Source of the DNA: Candidatus Pacearchaeota archaeon
GTDB lineage: Archaea; Nanobdellota; Nanobdellia; Pacearchaeales; GW2011-AR1
Direction: 5' to 3'
DNA: 64,000 bases
Assembly (NCBI GenBank): GCA_019659125.1
Contig: JAIFVX010000003.1
Location: 807-64,806 of the forward strand
How positions within the stretch are numbered: position 1 is the first letter of the stretch; each line of letters opens with the position of its first letter. This document shows, in pieces, positions 492-15,344 of the stretch. Made by a program: the position numbers and the translations under genes. The notes beneath the pieces were generated by a model. The model worked only from the letters and a program-made list of their open reading frames with translations, did not search any database and was not told where the DNA came from.

Positions 492-868
492 GATGATAGG
501 GATGACAAATATTCAGTGATTGCATCTCCCTTCACGAGCACGAAGATAATGGCCCCTACAAGAATGAAGAGGATCAATAAGAGAAATACAATCAAGACCA
601 TATTCTTTTTTCTTGGTTGACTCTGGAGTGGCCGTGAGATAACTGGGGGAGGAATCGACTGCGAAGGAGGAAGAGGATATTTTGATTTTTGGGTAACAGG
701 TTCCTGAGGAGATATGATTGTTGACGTCGTATCTCCTGTCAATGCCTTTGCCGCCTCTCGCACTTCCATAGCATTATATCCTGCATTGATAAAACTATTA
801 ACTGCATCATCAACGGAAGAACCTCGTTCCATCGCGTTCTTAAGTCCTGCAAGGATCTCATCCCTCAT
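488..868 (-). CDS. Small tail-anchored membrane protein of unknown function
   Basis: ORF with ATGA overlap to the RNase J stop. Soluble N-terminal ~45 aa domain, Pro-rich linker, one C-terminal TM helix. N-domain is paralogous to 29845..30108. Confidence 0.5.
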   Translation of the reverse strand: MRDEILAGLKNAMERGSSVDDAVNSFINAGYNAMEVREAAKALTGDTTSTIISPQEPVTQKSKYPLPPSQSIPPPVISRPLQSQPRKKNMVLIVFLLLILFILVGAIIFVLVKGDAITEYLSSLSS

Positions 869-7022: not shown

Positions 7023-9641
7023 GTGATAAATTTCAAGAAAATTGCGTCTGTAGTAACGAGCACTTTGATGTTGAGTTCTACGGTGGCTTTGGCCGCTGCA
7101 GCTAACTACCCAGCACCTTTCGTACAGAATGGAGCTGGCAACGTAGCTATAGTTTATGGTTCAAACTTACCAGCAGGATCAACTGACTTAGTAGCTGTTG
7201 CCGAGATCCAAGGATATTTGGCAACACAGCTTGCAAGACAGACAGCAACAGGAGGAACGAGTGTAACTGGTGTTTCAGTTACAGGAGAGGCAGCACCATT
7301 ATTTACAGGAACAAAACTCTATGTAAATGATTCATTGAACGCTGTCAAGACTGTAATGACAAAGACCGAACTGCCAACCGTTTTGGCTTCTGGAACTTTC
7401 TCAGGTAACGTGGATGCAACCTATACTCAAACTATTGATATAGGATCAAACCCACAAGTTACTTTTGCAAAGCAACCAACAAGCTCAGACGACCCACAGT
7501 TTGGACTTACACTGTCAACGAGCACTGCAAACTATCTTTACAACACATCGGTTACCTTCAACAAAGCAATAAACTTCACTCATGCCGACTCCAAGGGAGC
7601 AGATATGACCTTGTTCGGACAGAAGTTTACCGTGGCTTCTTCAACAGATACAACCAACCTAGTGTTGTTGAAAACTGCTGAAAAGATAAGCCTTACCAGC
7701 GATGCACCTTCACAGAAGGTCACCATCGGAGGAAAGGAATACACGATCGAATTAATCTCTGCATCTGACACTTCAGCTACTGTACGAGTTACAGCAAGCG
7801 ATGGAACTTCGGAAACGAAGGAGGTTAATGAGAACAGCTCAAAGAAGGTCAACGGAATCACAGTAGCCGTAACGAACGCTGACGAGACTAACTTAAAGTT
7901 GTCCGCATCAGTAATCGCAGGCGCTGAGAAAGTGACGCTAACAGATGGAAGCGCAGTAGCAATTGGAGAAGACTCCAAAGTAGTTGATGGAACGAAAGTT
8001 ACTCTAACAGGAGGCACTACGGCCACTACCAAAATAACGGTAAGTACCTATGCATCCGACTCAGACCATGACGCACTATTGCCGGGTCAAGAGTTTGTCA
8101 GCCCTACATTCGGAACCTTTAAGATAGACTTCGCTAGCCTTAATGAGCCGGAAAACAGCTCTGCTCGAGAGAACATTAAAATTGTCGCAAGTGGAGATGA
8201 TAAAATGATTGTTGACTTTATGCCAGGATACGCATCAAGCAACAAAGCAATCCAGTTCGCTATCAACAAGAGTACAGGTAGCAGTGGATTCCAACTTCAA
8301 TCCGACAGTGATGGACATAACATCACCGTACAGGAGAGAAGGAAGGCTTTCAAGAACGATTACATCGTTCTTGGAAATGAGGAAAGCGGACGCTTACTAA
8401 AAGTCCAGACCATCACAAACCAGACATCTGGTTACAACCAGGATAAAGTCAGCATGACTGATGTCTTCACAGGAGACACCTATGATGCTACATTAACTGG
8501 TGAAGGATCTGGAAGTATTGTTGTTGGAGGAAAGTCGTATAACCTCATCTATAACGGTACGCCGTCAGATGACTCAAACTTTGTACGATTGAACTATCCA
8601 GACAGTACAGGAAGCGGGGATGTAGTTTTGTTACCAACTTTGAGAACATCAAAGGGAGCAAAAGTTGCATTCTACAAGCCTATCAACAACTTATCGATTG
8701 ATGACTGGGATGGAGACGGAACTGATGCAGCAACGTTGAAATTCCCTAACGGGGATGGATACACGGATGTAGCAACAGTTGCAGGTCTTAACGCAGCAGG
8801 TATCGGAATGACTATTGGAGGCAGCGCGCTTAACGCGTCTCTTCCAGCAGTAACGGCAACTGTAGGTAGATTTACCTACAACTTTACGTATTCCGGTCCT
8901 AACCAAACAACTATTTACTTGCTTTCTCCTGACGGAGGAAACATTGTATCGCCAGCTATTCAGCTTATCGAGGAAAAAGATGACAACTCACAATTCCACG
9001 GAATGGTTGTCACCCTTGAGGGAGCAGGAAGCGGTGATCAAGGAGTAGGAGTTAACGACGTCTCAAGAACCTGGCAAAACGACGCTACCTGGGACCAAAT
9101 TACACTTGCTAGCAATAGCAAGATCAGTAAGGAGGCAGACCTTTACGGTACTATCGTAAGCATAGATTCTTCCGACTCAGACCAGAAATCTACAACCATC
9201 AGTTACCCTGATGAACAAGTTTACGCTAACATATACGCAGCTGAAAAGACTGCAGATATTTCAGGCGGAACAACTTCATCATCTGGAGGATCTGTACGAG
9301 AACTTGGCTCAGTCCTAGTGACTGACAGCGAGGCCTCATCAGTGTCTTCAAAGAATCTGATTGTTGTTGGTGGAAGTTGCGTTAACAAAGTTGCTGCTGA
9401 ATTGCTTGGAGGCTCTCTTTGCGGAGCAGACTTCGAGTCAAAGACAAGCGTTGGATCTGGTTCATTCCTGATTCAGTCGTTCAGTCGATCAAGCGGCGCT
9501 GTTGCAACACTCGTAGCAGGTTACAATGCAGCTGACACAGTCAATGCTGCACGATTCCTAGACACGCACACGGTAGATACTACTGTAGGCAAGAAGTACA
9601 AGGGATCATCTGCAACAAGTGCTGACCTAGTAACAACGTAA
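7023..9641 (+). CDS. S-layer protein (Methanococcales MJ0822-type)
   Basis: GTG start. Signal peptide ...STVALAAAANYPAPFVQNG, Thr/Ser/Gly-rich body, C-terminal LIVVGGSCVNKVAAELLGG ... LVAGYNAADTVNAARFL typical of this family. Confidence 0.7.
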   Translation: MINFKKIASVVTSTLMLSSTVALAAAANYPAPFVQNGAGNVAIVYGSNLPAGSTDLVAVAEIQGYLATQLARQTATGGTSVTGVSVTGEAAPLFTGTKLYVNDSLNAVKTVMTKTELPTVLASGTFSGNVDATYTQTIDIGSNPQVTFAKQPTSSDDPQFGLTLSTSTANYLYNTSVTFNKAINFTHADSKGADMTLFGQKFTVASSTDTTNLVLLKTAEKISLTSDAPSQKVTIGGKEYTIELISASDTSATVRVTASDGTSETKEVNENSSKKVNGITVAVTNADETNLKLSASVIAGAEKVTLTDGSAVAIGEDSKVVDGTKVTLTGGTTATTKITVSTYASDSDHDALLPGQEFVSPTFGTFKIDFASLNEPENSSARENIKIVASGDDKMIVDFMPGYASSNKAIQFAINKSTGSSGFQLQSDSDGHNITVQERRKAFKNDYIVLGNEESGRLLKVQTITNQTSGYNQDKVSMTDVFTGDTYDATLTGEGSGSIVVGGKSYNLIYNGTPSDDSNFVRLNYPDSTGSGDVVLLPTLRTSKGAKVAFYKPINNLSIDDWDGDGTDAATLKFPNGDGYTDVATVAGLNAAGIGMTIGGSALNASLPAVTATVGRFTYNFTYSGPNQTTIYLLSPDGGNIVSPAIQLIEEKDDNSQFHGMVVTLEGAGSGDQGVGVNDVSRTWQNDATWDQITLASNSKISKEADLYGTIVSIDSSDSDQKSTTISYPDEQVYANIYAAEKTADISGGTTSSSGGSVRELGSVLVTDSEASSVSSKNLIVVGGSCVNKVAAELLGGSLCGADFESKTSVGSGSFLIQSFSRSSGAVATLVAGYNAADTVNAARFLDTHTVDTTVGKKYKGSSATSADLVTT

Positions 9642-9648
9642 GCAAAAA

Positions 9649-9680
9649 TTTTATTTTTTTATTTTTCTTTCTTTCTATAT
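9649..9680 (+). terminator. Oligo-T tract after the S-layer gene
   Basis: ttttatttttttatttttctttctttct immediately after the TAA. Archaeal terminators are T-runs. Confidence 0.5.
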
Positions 9681-9710
9681 ATTTTTAAACACTAGATGTT
9701 TCACTGAAAT

Positions 9711-10241
9711 ATGAGATCAATAGAGACTACGGAATTGAAGGAAGAACGGCAGAAAAAGAAAGCCAGGCTTATCAGTGCATTGCTTCTTCTTATGCTTTTA
9801 GGAAGCGTTGCAGGATATGCCTTCCTCTCACAAGGCGATACGGCTGCGCCTGCTGCTCCTCCAGCCCAAAATGGACAATTTACTACTGACTATCAGGGGA
9901 CACAGCTTGCATTTACAAGCCCTCCTAGCTCTGTAACAGCCATTCAAGCTCCCTATGTAACCATAAATCAATATGCTGGAAAGCCGCTCTATATAGTGTC
10001 CGATAGTGAAGCAATCACCTATGAAATATCTTCAACATTGGGAAGGTATGTCGCCCGCTGGCAGCCTGCATGTTATGGAAACTGCACTGAAGACCTGCCA
10101 AGCAAGGACTGCACGGAAAATCTTATTGTGTGGAACCAGTCTGATGAAAACAAGATCTCTCAACAAGACTCATGCGTTTTCATTGATGGAGATATTAGAG
10201 CCGTCGACGCATTTTTGTATAAAGTCTTTGGAATCCAGTAG
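9711..10241 (+). CDS. N-terminally anchored secreted protein, unknown function
   Basis: Basic N-terminus plus one TM helix (ARLISALLLLMLLGSVAGYAFL). Cys-containing ectodomain. Confidence 0.5.
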   Translation: MRSIETTELKEERQKKKARLISALLLLMLLGSVAGYAFLSQGDTAAPAAPPAQNGQFTTDYQGTQLAFTSPPSSVTAIQAPYVTINQYAGKPLYIVSDSEAITYEISSTLGRYVARWQPACYGNCTEDLPSKDCTENLIVWNQSDENKISQQDSCVFIDGDIRAVDAFLYKVFGIQ

Positions 10242-10275
10242 AAACCTTTAAAATGCGCTGGACATTTTATTATCT

Positions 10276-10914
10276 ATGAAGAAAGTCGTTAAAAAAGAAA
10301 ATAGCTCAAGGAGAAGGTTATACTGGATTGTTGGAACAATTGTCGTCCTTGTTGCCGTTTATCTTGCCACATCATATATCATCAGGGGCATGACTCAGTT
10401 CACCTATGAAGGCTTGACCTTCACGAAAGAGACCCAGTATGGCGTTCCCTTTTTCCACCACTATTATTACTTTACAGACTCCCATGGGCAGCTGACAAAA
10501 TACAACCTTTACTTGAGGAATGATCCTCGTACCAATACTGTCCCAGTCAGTGGAAGAGTCCTTTTCAATTTCAATAGAAAAATCTATCTAGGGATTAATA
10601 TCTCGGATCTCGCAGCATGCAGTAACAGCTCGCTTGCGGTCGCCGAGCTCTCATCATTCCTTACCGATAATGAGTTTCAGGTAACAGCAGGAGTACCTGA
10701 CAAGCAACAGGCACAAGAACTGAACCAGACCTATGTATCATGCACTCAATTCTTGGGGAATACAGTCATTATGCTTGAGGGTGGGGAAAACAGTTCCATT
10801 GTAGGAAAGAATGGGTGCTATAAACTCACCGTTTCGCAATGTAAGATCCTTCCCGTCGTGGAAAAGTTCAAAATCCGCGCGTTGCTCGATTCGAGAAACA
10901 CTACTTCTTCCTAA
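10276..10914 (+). CDS. N-terminally anchored secreted protein, unknown function
   Basis: TM helix LYWIVGTIVVLVAVYLATSYII. TATA-like tttaaaat at 10248-10255, ~25 nt upstream. Confidence 0.5.
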   Translation: MKKVVKKENSSRRRLYWIVGTIVVLVAVYLATSYIIRGMTQFTYEGLTFTKETQYGVPFFHHYYYFTDSHGQLTKYNLYLRNDPRTNTVPVSGRVLFNFNRKIYLGINISDLAACSNSSLAVAELSSFLTDNEFQVTAGVPDKQQAQELNQTYVSCTQFLGNTVIMLEGGENSSIVGKNGCYKLTVSQCKILPVVEKFKIRALLDSRNTTSS

Positions 10915-11503
10915 GCAACTCTATAGCTGGAGGGATAAAAGAAAGGATAATAACGATAAGTGTAACAAGTGAGAGATGCCCCTTGATTATCGGGATTGTT
11001 CCAAAGAAATATCCTCCAAATAAGAAGAGGCCCACCCATGTTATTCCTCCGAAGACATTATATCTTAAGAATTTTTTGTATTCCATGCTTCCCAGACCTG
11101 CGACGAATGGTGCAAAGGTCCTTATAATGGGCACAAACCGTGCCAGGACAATTGTCTTGGCTCCATGCTTATGATAGAAGGCATTTGTTTTGTCGATGTA
11201 TTCCTTCTTAAGCTTTGCTATCACTTTCTTCCCGAACGTATTTCCAACCCAGTAATTGACGGTGTCGCCTCCTATAGCTGCAAGAGAAAGCAGCACAAAC
11301 GCTGCTAGCACGACTCCTGGTCGCGCCGCAAGGGTGGCGCCTGCAACAAAGATAATTGAATCTCCCGGAAGAAACGGGGCAAATACAAGGCCAGTCTCAC
11401 AGAAAATAACAAGGATAAGAACACCAAGAGCTACATAGAGCCCATGTCCTGCGATAAAAGAATTAAGATAGGTATCTGTGTGAATGAGAAAGTCGAGAAT
11501 CAT
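10901..11503 (-). CDS. DedA family (VTT domain) membrane protein
   Basis: FAPFLPGDSIIFVAGA ... NYWVG ... FVPIIRTFAPFVAG pattern. Confidence 0.75.
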   Translation of the reverse strand: MILDFLIHTDTYLNSFIAGHGLYVALGVLILVIFCETGLVFAPFLPGDSIIFVAGATLAARPGVVLAAFVLLSLAAIGGDTVNYWVGNTFGKKVIAKLKKEYIDKTNAFYHKHGAKTIVLARFVPIIRTFAPFVAGLGSMEYKKFLRYNVFGGITWVGLFLFGGYFFGTIPIIKGHLSLVTLIVIILSFIPPAIELLRKK

Positions 11504-12021
11504 GATCTCCTCGTTATATCTGTAACAATGTTCATGACGTCCGTATATATGGGGATTTCACGAATCCTGAAGAGGAAAACGTTGGCAAACCATATGAGGA
11601 TAAGAAGAATCGTGCTTCCAAAGTACCAGAAGAGCTCGTGAGCAGTATCAAAGTATTGTGATCCTTGACGAGCAAGATGTGTGAATATAATGATCCGCAA
11701 GACATTCAAGAATAGGAATGAAAGGATAATGAAAAGTAGGCTGTAGAACCTTTTACGTGACTTCATAGGGGTTGATAAGTTCAAAACAAAGAGAAGATAG
11801 TAGGCTGCGCCTGCAATACAGGCAGGGATAAGCTCGATATAGATGCCTTGAACGAATATCGTTGCAGTCCCTTTAATAAGAATTGCTGATGGTAATCCAA
11901 GGGTTACAAGATGAAGCGTTATGGGGGAGAAAACTGCATAAATGACAGCAAGATTAAAAAGCGCAAGAAGTACCAAGGTCATGTATCGAGTAAGAAGGTA
12001 GATCATTTCCTTATCTTTCAT
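11500..12021 (-). CDS. Short exosortase/archaeosortase-family membrane protein (candidate)
   Basis: Polytopic, 173 aa. Candidate catalytic residues in family order: IPACIAG (Cys), LNVLRI (Arg), DTAHELF (His). Transcribed immediately downstream of (3' to) a surface-protein gene with a C-terminal sorting-type tail. Confidence 0.55.
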   Translation of the reverse strand: MKDKEMIYLLTRYMTLVLLALFNLAVIYAVFSPITLHLVTLGLPSAILIKGTATIFVQGIYIELIPACIAGAAYYLLFVLNLSTPMKSRKRFYSLLFIILSFLFLNVLRIIIFTHLARQGSQYFDTAHELFWYFGSTILLILIWFANVFLFRIREIPIYTDVMNIVTDITRRS

Positions 12022-12051
12022 TCAAACAAGAAGCGAAGACTCTTTAATAAC

Positions 12052-13689
12052 TTAACTTCGCTGTGAGAGCCGTACTGCAACAACAATGATGAGGACGATA
12101 AGAACAACGTTAATTATTCCAATAACCCAGATTAATGGATTGCCTGAAAGTGATCCTAATGAGAACCCTTGTGCTCCTGCAATTGAAACAACAACATCCT
12201 TTGATTGTGTTGATGCCCCTGATTGTGCATCAATGGTGAATGTCTTGTCTCCTGAAGCTGCATTGTCTACCGTGAACTTAAGTGTAATATCCTTTGATTC
12301 TCCAGCAGAAAGCGTTACAACTCGGTCTGAGATTGAATCCAGACTTGCCCAAGCATCGTAACCCTTTACATTGACAATTTCAGTCTGAGAGCTTGTTCCC
12401 CTGTTTGTCAGGGTCACTTTGACAGTCATAGGCTGCCCTGCCTTCGCATCTGACTCAAGAGAAGCGCTGATAACAACAGGGTTTGTTCCAGATCCTGAAC
12501 CGGTTCCCGTTGTTGCGCATCCAGCTACTTTTAATGGAACTATTGTCGCCTCATCTGAAGATTCTCGATAGACCCCATTGTTGTAATCGTAGTCTGCTCG
12601 AAGCTCAATGTTGTAGGTCTTGTCCGAAGCTGATCGAGGGACATTGAAGGTGAATCTGATGTTTGAACGGTCTCCCTGGTCAAGATCCTGTCGTATTTCC
12701 CGTACAAGGTCAACGCCAAGTTCTCTGTTCACTGCAGTTACTCGTGTCTGGTCCTGGTCCTCATCGCCGACATTCACCGCATCAAAGCTTAAATCAACAG
12801 AGTCACCGCACGTTGCAGTGTTTGGATTAAGAGATACATCGGTGAATGCAATGAACTTGCCCTCATCGCTTTCCTGGTCTATTGAGATTGAATCGTAAAT
12901 CTGATTTGTGTCAAAATCCTCTGCACGGTCAACACACATGTTTGACTCTCCAAGCTTTGTGCTGTATGCCTTTACTGTAAGTTTGTAGTCGCCAGAGGAT
13001 ATGTCTGCAGGAACCGTGAACTCAAAGGTGGCTGTCTCTCGGTCTCCGTCATTGATTCTTCCCAAACTAATAGTTTCCTCATCAGTGTTTGAGAAGTCGA
13101 GGTCTCCAACCTGGTTTCGTCCTTCTGAATCAAACAATCCAAGCTTTACATCAACATCAGATATATCCTTGTCTCCCGTGTTCCTTACTCGAACTTCTAT
13201 GGTAATCTTGTCAAGAGGCTGCCAGTCCTGGTCGTCGCCCTCTCCCTCATTGCTAATATCTATTGAATCGAGCGTCAGGTTTCCACCTGCAGGCCCGCTT
13301 CGGCAGAAGGTGTTTTCCGTCGTTAAGCCAAGAACATTAGATTCTATTAGCGTTGAATTAGCGGCTGTGTCCGTTCCTTTTGCCTTGACCGTAGCAGTCT
13401 GAGAGCCAAATCGAGTGTCAGTTGAAAGTTTCGTTACACTAATTAATGTGGAACTGTTAGAAGAAAGAGATGCAATAGTAGTAGGTGAGATCTGCACCCC
13501 AGATACTTCGAAAGTTATGCCTGTCACAGTTCCATTTCCAGTGTTTGTTACATTAATGCTTGTAAGGCTCGTGCTGTTAGTTAGTGTTGAAGGTCCTACA
13601 AGCTGAAGCGATAGTGCTGCGCTTGAAAGACTAAGAGTAAGAACTGCTAAAACCGTGAATGCGAATAATGAAAGTAATGTGCGTTTCAT
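12052..13689 (-). CDS. Secreted CARDB-repeat surface protein with C-terminal TM plus basic tail
   Basis: Start moved to ATG (MKRTLLSLFAFTVLAVLTLSLSSA). CARDB-like repeats (ITIEVRVRNTGDKDISDVDVKLGLFD). Many NxS/T sequons. C-terminus ...SGNPLIWVIGIINVVLIVLIIVVAVRLSQRS. Confidence 0.65.
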   Translation of the reverse strand: MKRTLLSLFAFTVLAVLTLSLSSAALSLQLVGPSTLTNSTSLTSINVTNTGNGTVTGITFEVSGVQISPTTIASLSSNSSTLISVTKLSTDTRFGSQTATVKAKGTDTAANSTLIESNVLGLTTENTFCRSGPAGGNLTLDSIDISNEGEGDDQDWQPLDKITIEVRVRNTGDKDISDVDVKLGLFDSEGRNQVGDLDFSNTDEETISLGRINDGDRETATFEFTVPADISSGDYKLTVKAYSTKLGESNMCVDRAEDFDTNQIYDSISIDQESDEGKFIAFTDVSLNPNTATCGDSVDLSFDAVNVGDEDQDQTRVTAVNRELGVDLVREIRQDLDQGDRSNIRFTFNVPRSASDKTYNIELRADYDYNNGVYRESSDEATIVPLKVAGCATTGTGSGSGTNPVVISASLESDAKAGQPMTVKVTLTNRGTSSQTEIVNVKGYDAWASLDSISDRVVTLSAGESKDITLKFTVDNAASGDKTFTIDAQSGASTQSKDVVVSIAGAQGFSLGSLSGNPLIWVIGIINVVLIVLIIVVAVRLSQRS

Positions 13690-13773
13690 TTTATTGTTGT
13701 AACTGGTCAATTACACTACTTTATAAACTTTTCTGTTCTGGAGAACAAACATTATTTAAATGAAATACTCCTT

Positions 13774-14160
13774 ATGTATATGAGAATGATACGTTCACGA
13801 GAGAATCTTATTGGCGCCTGGGCATTTCTCGTTGGAGTATTATTGTCTGTTGGCGTCGGTCTTTTCTCTGTTTTTGCAGGCAAGACAGTCAACCAGGTCA
13901 TTCTTGGTATCCTTGCTATCCTCGGCATTGTCGCAGGCTATTTCGTATCTGAACGGGAAGCCAAAACATTCCTTATTGCCTCAGTCTCCCTTGTTATTGT
14001 CAGTTATGCAGGTATATCCGGTCTTGTGCTGAGTGCTGCAATAGCAGGCATAGACATAGGGAAGATCATATCCTCCACGCTTGGTGCATTATTAATGCTC
14101 TTCGTACCTGCAGCAGTCATTGTTGCATTAAAGACCGTATTTTCAATCTCAACGAGCTAA
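13774..14160 (+). CDS. Membrane protein (about 4 TM), unknown
   Basis: Hydrophobic ORF. The start may be ATG 13780 or 13786, given the TATA-like ttatttaaat at 13753-13762. Confidence 0.45.
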   Translation: MYMRMIRSRENLIGAWAFLVGVLLSVGVGLFSVFAGKTVNQVILGILAILGIVAGYFVSEREAKTFLIASVSLVIVSYAGISGLVLSAAIAGIDIGKIISSTLGALLMLFVPAAVIVALKTVFSISTS

Positions 14161-14200
14161 TTATATAAATCTTTATTAATATAAAAGAGAACATAAAGGC

Positions 14201-14542
14201 ATGAGAGAGCATACTCTAGGTAATTTAGTTACCCTGATAAATGATAATAGGCAATATGATGAAGCTACACTTTCTGCTAGAGCTAGCGCCTATACGAGCA
14301 ACTCTATTGATAGCACATTATTTACATACACAGGAAGCATGAGGTTACGAATCCCAGGGCCGGGCAAGGACAGCCAGTATGAAATGGTCTTTAAGACCGA
14401 TACAAACTCAGGCTCATTCCCGTTCAGAGTTAATGGAAAGATATATGATGAAGCGCGCGGCGACAGAAGAGCAATCATCATACCGACAATACCAAAAGGA
14501 TCGGTCTTTATACTTGAGAATATCGAAGATATTAAGTTCTAA
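14201..14542 (+). CDS. Hypothetical protein
   Basis: ORF only. Confidence 0.35.
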   Translation: MREHTLGNLVTLINDNRQYDEATLSARASAYTSNSIDSTLFTYTGSMRLRIPGPGKDSQYEMVFKTDTNSGSFPFRVNGKIYDEARGDRRAIIIPTIPKGSVFILENIEDIKF

Positions 14543-14556
14543 TTTTTAGAATAGAA

Positions 14557-14937
14557 TTATTCGTGGATAAAGTCCGTCTTCTCTTTGCCCTTTGCAAGAG
14601 GAGCCTTATGGATCTCAGCAAAGGATGGTGTTGCAATGATTGTGTTGTCTCCGAAGCCTGCAATTGAGCCCTCTAATGCATCAACTGTCTTCTTTATCTT
14701 TGCAATTGCTCGCTTCAATTCAATGATATCCTTGGTCTTCAGCGTCTTGATGTCAATAACTGCAATGGTATAGCCTTCCCTTAATGAATTGAGAATATCA
14801 TTTATGTCGTCAAACTGTCGTAGAACAAAAGGCTTTACAACAACCTTGCTTTCTTTTGGTACAGAAGTGTTAAGGTCTATCTCGACATAGTCTGCGCCTT
14901 CCTCTTTTCCAAATAACTTTCTTAAGTTAAATGCCAT
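14557..14937 (-). CDS. sepF: Cell division protein SepF (FtsZ membrane anchor)
   Basis: N-terminal amphipathic MAFNLRKLFGK, then a DUF552 core VVVKPFVLRQFDDINDILNSLREGYTIAVIDIKTL... Confidence 0.75.
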   Translation of the reverse strand: MAFNLRKLFGKEEGADYVEIDLNTSVPKESKVVVKPFVLRQFDDINDILNSLREGYTIAVIDIKTLKTKDIIELKRAIAKIKKTVDALEGSIAGFGDNTIIATPSFAEIHKAPLAKGKEKTDFIHE

Positions 14938-15008
14938 GGTACTTCTTGCATGAGTGGGTATATAAATATTGCTGTGTTTTGCACATCTATTTATCTTCCA
15001 GGTGAATT

Positions 15009-15344
15009 TTATCTTTTTTCCTTAGAATTCTTTTCCATTGAGGAGTTAATTTCCTTCCTCAGCGTCAAAGCTTGCGTATTCACAAGGTTTTCCTGCTTTT
15101 CTATCGACGTAACACGAAGATCAAGCACTTTTTTCTTCTCCTCAAGTTCAGACGTAAGTTTTTTCTTGTCAGATCGAAGCATAATGCCTCCAAGAACCCT
15201 ATACACCTCGTCATCAGCATGTTTTAATTCCTCTAAGGCGTTTAAAATCTCATTCAATTCCATCTGATGGGACTGTTTTTGCATTAATAATGCTTGTAAG
15301 TTCTGCTCAAGAAGCTGAAGCTCCTCTATCTTCTGCTGAATCAT
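15009..15344 (-). CDS. pfdB: Prefoldin beta subunit
   Basis: Coiled coil - beta hairpin - coiled coil layout: QQKIEELQLLEQNLQ...VYRVLGGIMLRSDKKKL... Confidence 0.75.
   Translation of the reverse strand: MIQQKIEELQLLEQNLQALLMQKQSHQMELNEILNALEELKHADDEVYRVLGGIMLRSDKKKLTSELEEKKKVLDLRVTSIEKQENLVNTQALTLRKEINSSMEKNSKEKR

Follow-up and report, generated by a model that had tools for sequence, protein, structure and literature searches.

We analysed a 64,000-nucleotide stretch of a Candidatus Pacearchaeota archaeon (contig JAIFVX010000003.1, positions 807 to 64,806; hereafter the window), which belongs to a five-contig, 85.6%-complete DPANN assembly. Its minus strand encodes a putative sortase-and-substrate pair, consisting of a 173-residue enzyme, pacearchaeosortase, and the product of the gene directly upstream, a PACE-CTERM surface protein (the target). 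The target, the sortase and a DedA-type membrane protein are encoded by three co-directional genes. The target stop codon is separated from the sortase ATG by 30 nucleotides; the sortase stop codon and the DedA ATG overlap as ATGA, and translation of DedA is coupled to that of the sortase. The features of the pair and its downstream gene are as follows.

12052..13689, minus strand: PACE-CTERM target protein, 545 residues from ATG 13689 (NF033506, Pfam CARDB, AlphaFold2)
12052-13710, minus strand: longest open reading frame of the target gene, 552 residues from TTG 13710
12055..12174, minus strand: C-terminal sorting signal, the last 40 residues of the target, AQGFSLGSLSGNPLIWVIGIINVVLIVLIIVVAVRLSQRS
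13720..13727, minus strand: candidate archaeal TATA box TTTATAAA, 30 nucleotides 5' of ATG 13689, read from the sequence
11500..12021, minus strand: pacearchaeosortase, 173 residues (NF033505 and TIGR04178)
11820-11818, 11697-11695 and 11640-11638, minus strand: codons of Cys68, Arg109 and His128, the putative catalytic residues of pacearchaeosortase
10901..11503, minus strand: DedA/VTT-domain membrane protein, 200 residues (Pfam VTT_dom)

The alternative start codon TTG 13710 sits between the candidate TATA box and the point where transcription would be expected to begin. This speaks for ATG 13689, the codon used in the first-pass annotation, as the probable start of the target.

The family of the enzyme was determined by comparison with curated models. 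It scores 175.7 bits against NCBIfam NF033505 "pacearchaeosortase" (cut-off 80; 175.1 bits when scanning the genome), with residues 7-169 aligned to model positions 2-166 of 167, and 29.5 bits against the exosortase/archaeosortase signature TIGR04178 (cut-off 23). All further sortase subfamily models fall far below their own cut-offs, and no Pfam model matches the enzyme. The first-pass annotation, made from the DNA letters, had proposed a short archaeosortase-like protein and suggested that a pacearchaeosortase model might exist in NCBIfam; both points proved correct. GenBank homologues already carry the name "pacearchaeosortase", and the JGI name is "exosortase/archaeosortase family protein". 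Since both partners are present in NCBIfam for Pacearchaeota (NF033505 and NF033506), this is a rediscovery rather than a new system. The pair is an unremarkable representative of a family pair that is curated already, though experimentally untouched, and with which it shares the lineage (Pacearchaeota and relatives), the size class, the gene adjacency and the C-terminal region up to the last model position. It differs from that family pair in nothing essential, the present target being a short form.

Inspection of the enzyme sequence confirms the three motifs that had been picked out as active-site candidates: IPACIAG carries Cys68, LNVLRI carries Arg109 and DTAHELF carries His128. All three residues are invariant in 31/31 orthologues and in 81/81 members of a second set, so they are no chance occurrence. 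Further invariant positions are R12, Y13, N81, R91, N106, W132, W144 and P157. Cys, Arg and His make up the triad suspected to be catalytic in the exosortase/archaeosortase protease family (Haft preprint 10.1101/2023.06.07.544157), while Cys173, Arg214 and Arg253 of Haloferax ArtA were found to be critical by mutagenesis (review PMC9263693). The Cys-to-Arg spacing of the present enzyme is 41 residues, identical to that between ArtA Cys173 and Arg214.

The enzyme is, as had been claimed, much shorter than ArtA (173 versus about 303 residues, the latter encoded by the 912-bp artA gene; PMC7157517). This size is normal for the short families, with model lengths of 153-199 positions. ArtE, XrtH, XrtR, XrtX, XrtY and heimdallarchaeosortase have such model lengths, share the signature region and give weak secondary matches, but these lie far below the respective cut-offs, and the families belong to other lineages and have other cognate signals. 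Of the named archaeosortase subfamilies, ArtE alone is among the matches (19.6 bits, cut-off 95), and none of the ArtA models appears among matches at E ≤ 1.

An AlphaFold2 model of the enzyme (predicted local distance difference test score, pLDDT, 89.9) displays four long helices (residues 3-42, 66-83, 88-118 and 124-150). Two further elements of the model are a small beta sheet on the extracytoplasmic side and an amphipathic terminal helix. The four modelled helices and the hydropathy peaks identify the enzyme as a predicted polytopic integral membrane protein. Its basic residues are located at the N-terminus (K2, K4 and R12), in the KSRKR stretch 87-91 and at R152/R154; by consideration of the positive-inside rule, this placement would put Cys68, Arg109 and His128 into the membrane's outer half.

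The target scores 515 bits against NF033506 "PACE-CTERM-PROT, putative S-layer protein" (cut-off 110), with residues 37-551 aligned to model positions 116-627 of 627. The match thus runs through the last model position, and the target is a short form missing roughly the first 115 positions of the model, as is common to many relatives. Pfam CARDB matches over four stretches (56.9 bits), related Ig-like (immunoglobulin-like) domains are also matched, and the N-terminus carries a hydrophobic signal of the same kind as the orthologue signal peptides, which end ...SA-A. The AlphaFold2 model (pLDDT 84.7) consists of four beta-sandwich domains, a flexible linker modelled at low confidence and a C-terminal helix at 518-544 (545-residue numbering). 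A Foldseek search with this model returned generic tandem Ig/MG-domain proteins as the sole matches, and Protein Data Bank (PDB) sequence searches with the target, and with the 872-residue S-layer-like protein encoded nearby, found nothing. S-layer formation by the target is the putative function in the family name; what is predicted here is a chain of four Ig-like domains. The protein is acidic, with an isoelectric point of 4.3. The first-pass description of a secreted CARDB-repeat protein encoded upstream in the same direction stands, while the claim that it is rich in sequons does not: the target contains 6 N-x-S/T sites, compared to 7.3 ± 2.2 in shuffled sequences. All six lie within residues 45-144 (552-residue numbering), the region of the first Ig-like domain, with none in the remaining ~400 residues.

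The target ends in ...GFSLGSLSGNPLIWVIGIINVVLIVLIIVVAVRLSQRS, with a Kyte-Doolittle value of 3.33 for the 19-residue window 526-544. Across orthologous tails we find the signature N-x3-W-x-I-G-x2-N...VAV[RK]-x-S-R-R, the first part of which, N-x3-W-x-I-G-x2-N, sits at and inside the transmembrane helix. The tails of 78 orthologues align readily, and their consensus reads GLTGFSLGGNSLIWIIGIINVILIILIIVVAVRVSRR. In the corresponding column profile, the Asn is present in 62/78 tails, the Trp four residues on in 75/78 and the Gly in 63/78; the intramembrane Asn (75/78), Leu (74/78), Ala (75/78) and R/K (76/78) follow, and the tail has a basic end. A tripartite tail of non-PGF type, as originally described, is therefore borne out by the profile of 78 tails. 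The short motif GFSLG, which had been offered as its signature, is not: the G-x-[ST]-G stretch to which it belongs is weakly conserved among orthologous tails.

Tails were searched with a hidden Markov model (HMM), built first from 24 and later from 78 sequences. A plain pattern of a hydrophobic stretch followed by a basic end, applied to the open reading frames of the genome, had missed the target because of the Asn inside the helix. With the 78-sequence HMM, the target is the sole significant match in the 0.81-Mb genome (58.6 bits, E 8.5e-17; next best 0.09). Among 81 same-family genomes, matches were found in 63, and exactly one match in 62 of these 63. The genome likewise contains a single enzyme and a single NF033506 target above the cut-off. 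A tail that is unique in the genome and occurs once per genome in 62/63 cases indicates a one-enzyme, one-substrate system.

Three candidate second substrates were considered and rejected. C1:417608-418243 and C1:399992-400576 both gave E ~0.03 with the 24-sequence HMM; with the 78-sequence HMM the former fell outside the best 20 and the latter dropped to E 0.14. The third, a 432-residue CARDB paralogue at C1:9483-10781 (minus strand), matches the tail HMM at E 5.6 and NF033506 at 45.5 bits, below the cut-off, and has a different tail ending TRKPAKTEEFGESYY. This paralogue is encoded outside the window and has its own C-terminal transmembrane anchor with an acidic/aromatic cytoplasmic end; proteins of about 420-450 residues resembling it recur class-wide.

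In a few lineages (tails L103, L105, L027 and L018), the Cys/Arg/His enzyme is kept while the target tails do not show the signature of Trp plus intramembrane Asn; an example is ...SLVAILIALISAIVIAIIIVLIVKASRKK. This suggests a drifted signal or relaxed recognition.

The first-pass annotation had linked its case to the recurrence of the tail in genomes that carry the enzyme, and to the co-occurrence of the two. When tested, both were observed: the tail recurs at 78 of 80 related loci and in the 63 of 81 same-family genomes mentioned above, and of 201 genomes of the order, 190 carry the enzyme, 197 the target and three neither of them. Enzyme and substrate are near-universal and a core feature of the order. 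All relatives are metagenome-assembled genomes of Pacearchaeota, Woesearchaeota or Nanoarchaeota. In a phylum sample of 301 genomes, 66 contain the enzyme above the cut-off; a strong target match (E ≤ 1e-40) was found in 46/66 enzyme-positive versus 7/235 enzyme-negative genomes, corresponding to an odds ratio of 75 that is uncorrected for kinship. Outside the order the enzyme and target genes remain neighbours, mostly in divergent orientation. Examples of such divergent pairs are G309:C1:160179-164537, G445:C1:533626-535651 and G350:C1:424215-426018, with sortase homologues scoring 85-160 bits, and some genomes outside the order (G338, G468) possess two tandem sortase copies. Taken at the level of sequence, the data support the view that the enzyme and its neighbour are a genuine sortase-and-substrate pair.

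We propose that the two proteins very probably constitute a dedicated pacearchaeosortase system of this DPANN archaeon, comprising export, tail recognition, cleavage and re-anchoring. The target, predicted to be a chain of four Ig-like/CARDB domains, would leave the cell via its Sec-type signal peptide, and its C-terminal helix would first hold it in the membrane as a temporary anchor. The 173-residue, four-helix enzyme would then recognise and dock the tail helix, with its N-x3-W-x-I-G-x2-N ... VAVR-x-S-R-R signature, within the membrane. At the outer membrane face, the Cys68/Arg109/His128 site would, by analogy with Haloferax ArtA, remove the tail by cleavage, with Cys68 attacking close to the helix's outer end. 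The C-terminus so formed would probably be passed to a membrane lipid, such that the target stays as a lipid-anchored component of the envelope or S-layer. Export and temporary anchoring are borne out by sequence and structure prediction, while recognition, cleavage and re-anchoring are modelled on the homology to ArtA, from which the putative endopeptidase/transpeptidase activity of the enzyme on the C-terminal signal is extrapolated.

A comparison with the ArtA/PGF-CTERM system of Haloferax volcanii shows that both enzymes belong to the TIGR04178 superfamily and share the Cys-to-Arg spacing, that both signals are tripartite and abut a transmembrane helix, and that each system has as its substrate a major surface protein with Ig domains (the S-layer glycoprotein in Haloferax). 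Besides the difference in enzyme size, the present tail contains the N-x3-W-x-I-G-x2-N signature and no PGF, there is one substrate per genome with the enzyme gene beside the substrate gene, and PssA and PssD are not detected. With 173 residues and four helices, the enzyme is among the smallest of the exosortase family. Its small size, the one substrate encoded next to it and the sharply delimited signal make it a compact candidate for biochemistry and structural work on a family without a detectable solved relative.

Several observations weigh against the proposed system. What is said of cleavage, of its site and of lipid attachment is carried over from ArtA and would apply here by analogy. 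The term "pacearchaeosortase" was not found in the literature searched, and the subfamily is without a reported experiment. Neither sequence-profile nor Foldseek searches returned a PDB match for the enzyme, leaving the predicted fold and active-site geometry without solved-structure support. In addition, in genome G035 (L117; C1 ~378198-380126; 95% complete, 4 contigs), from the same family as the source genome, DedA comes straight after the target; the sortase gene has been cleanly lost, and no sortase match was found anywhere in the G035 genome. Its PACE-CTERM tail is nevertheless intact, ...SSLIWIIAAVNLVLIILIILVAVRLSHR, making G035 a natural enzyme knock-out. Evidently the retained tail is able to act as a simple transmembrane anchor, and the loss of the gene implies that the enzyme is dispensable.

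This natural knock-out speaks for a reading in which the tail is a permanent transmembrane anchor and the enzyme, despite its family resemblance, has some role other than processing it, such as that of a chaperone or assembly factor. The other CARDB surface proteins of the genome, which end in unrelated plain C-terminal anchors, point in the same direction. However, such a role would leave the strict invariance of Cys, Arg and His and the scores above both curated cut-offs to be accounted for. The position-by-position conservation of the tail, with a polar Asn in the helix and an invariant Trp, also goes far beyond the needs of a passive anchor. We therefore regard this reading as very improbable indeed.

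A further difficulty for the proposed sortase system concerns the lipid acceptor. PssD (PF02666) and CDP-alcohol phosphatidyltransferase (PF01066, PssA) were not detected in the 85.6%-complete genome, while control genomes were positive. An ethanolamine-lipid acceptor of the kind proposed for ArtA can thus not be made by this cell, and any attached lipid must be scavenged, unless the enzyme cleaves only. The absence of PF02666 and PF01066 fits a DPANN lifestyle in which lipids are scavenged. As a protease for release or maturation only, the enzyme would clip the transmembrane tail without involving a lipid, the target then being shed or handed to a lattice of the anchorless 872-residue S-layer-like protein. 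This possibility gains from the lack of both enzymes, which are required for ArtA-dependent lipidation in Haloferax (PMC7157517), and from the still unsettled question of one-step transpeptidation by exosortase-family enzymes (Haft preprint 10.1101/2023.06.07.544157). DPANN cells can, on the other hand, acquire host lipids, so missing biosynthesis leaves a lipid acceptor possible. There is also no outer membrane, and a released protein would be lost unless bound to another envelope component, while the strictly conserved basic end and the long helix fit a membrane-embedded handover. On balance, cleavage alone appears distinctly unlikely, and re-anchoring of the target by the sortase remains our preferred interpretation. 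A Pacearchaeota metaproteome paper makes no mention of S-layer or sortase.

The pair is embedded in a larger group of genes, further members of which are listed below.

13774..14160, plus strand: small polytopic membrane protein, 128 residues, divergent from the target gene; conserved, without known family
10276-10914, plus strand: N-terminally anchored protein, 212 residues, between the S-layer gene and DedA; without known family
9711-10241, plus strand: N-terminally anchored protein, 176 residues, between the S-layer gene and DedA; without known family
7023..9641, plus strand: S-layer-like protein, 872 residues, convergent neighbour (Pfam S_layer_C); without C-terminal anchor

Neighbourhoods were counted at the 80 related loci with 4-kb flanks. 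The target gene lies upstream of the sortase on the same strand at 78/80 loci, and DedA directly downstream on the same strand at 49/80. The gene for the 212-residue protein was found at 75/80 loci, that for the 176-residue protein at 70/80 and the 872-residue S-layer-like gene at 57/80, the last count being limited by flank length. The 128-residue membrane protein gene occurs at 53/80, always on the opposite strand beside the target gene. The 128-, 176- and 212-residue proteins match no Pfam or NCBIfam family. The 872-residue protein scores 35.1 bits against Pfam S_layer_C (cut-off 23.9). It possesses an N-terminal hydrophobic segment only and its hydropathy profile contains no C-terminal transmembrane segment, in agreement with the first-pass remark that it is devoid of such a tail.

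The DedA-type protein scores 69.2 bits against Pfam VTT_dom (cut-off 33.9) and 216.9 bits, just below the cut-off of 236, against the E. coli-type DedA equivalog NF008102, while UptA models lie far below cut-off. In bacteria, proteins of the DedA type transport polyprenyl-phosphate or lipids, and a part for DedA-superfamily/PopT homologues in the dolichol-phosphate recycling of eukaryotes and archaea is speculation only. In view of this transport function, the coupling of DedA to the sortase may concern glycosylation of the surface proteins rather than the sortase reaction.

A two-component S-layer is found in the Sulfolobales, where a large anchorless protein, SlaA, is encoded near SlaB, a partner anchored in the membrane by its C-terminus. 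SlaB is not known to undergo processing by a sortase. The likeness to the present locus is one of architecture and gene proximity, with no sequence relationship shown. Synteny suggests a partnership between the target and the 872-residue protein. It is conceivable, though rather unlikely, that the envelope is built from these two proteins, both made by the block, with the sortase-substrate pair as its membrane-anchoring half: the four-Ig target, anchored by lipid or transmembrane helix, would tether the anchorless 872-residue protein, and the coupled DedA would provide or flip a lipid acceptor taken from the host, in the role of the artA-adjacent pssA/pssD of Methanosarcina. The absent PssA/PssD and the DedA coupling together raise the question of how surface proteins are lipid-anchored in a lipid-scavenging cell.

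The gene order of the block is prefoldin-beta, SepF, the divergent 128-residue membrane protein, target, sortase and DedA, followed by the convergent genes for the 212- and 176-residue anchored proteins and the 872-residue S-layer-like protein. The sortase pair marks the core block of envelope genes in an archaeal order that is uncultivated and probably symbiotic. This ~8-kb block (window 7023-15344) is conserved across the order and joins cell division and envelope genes.

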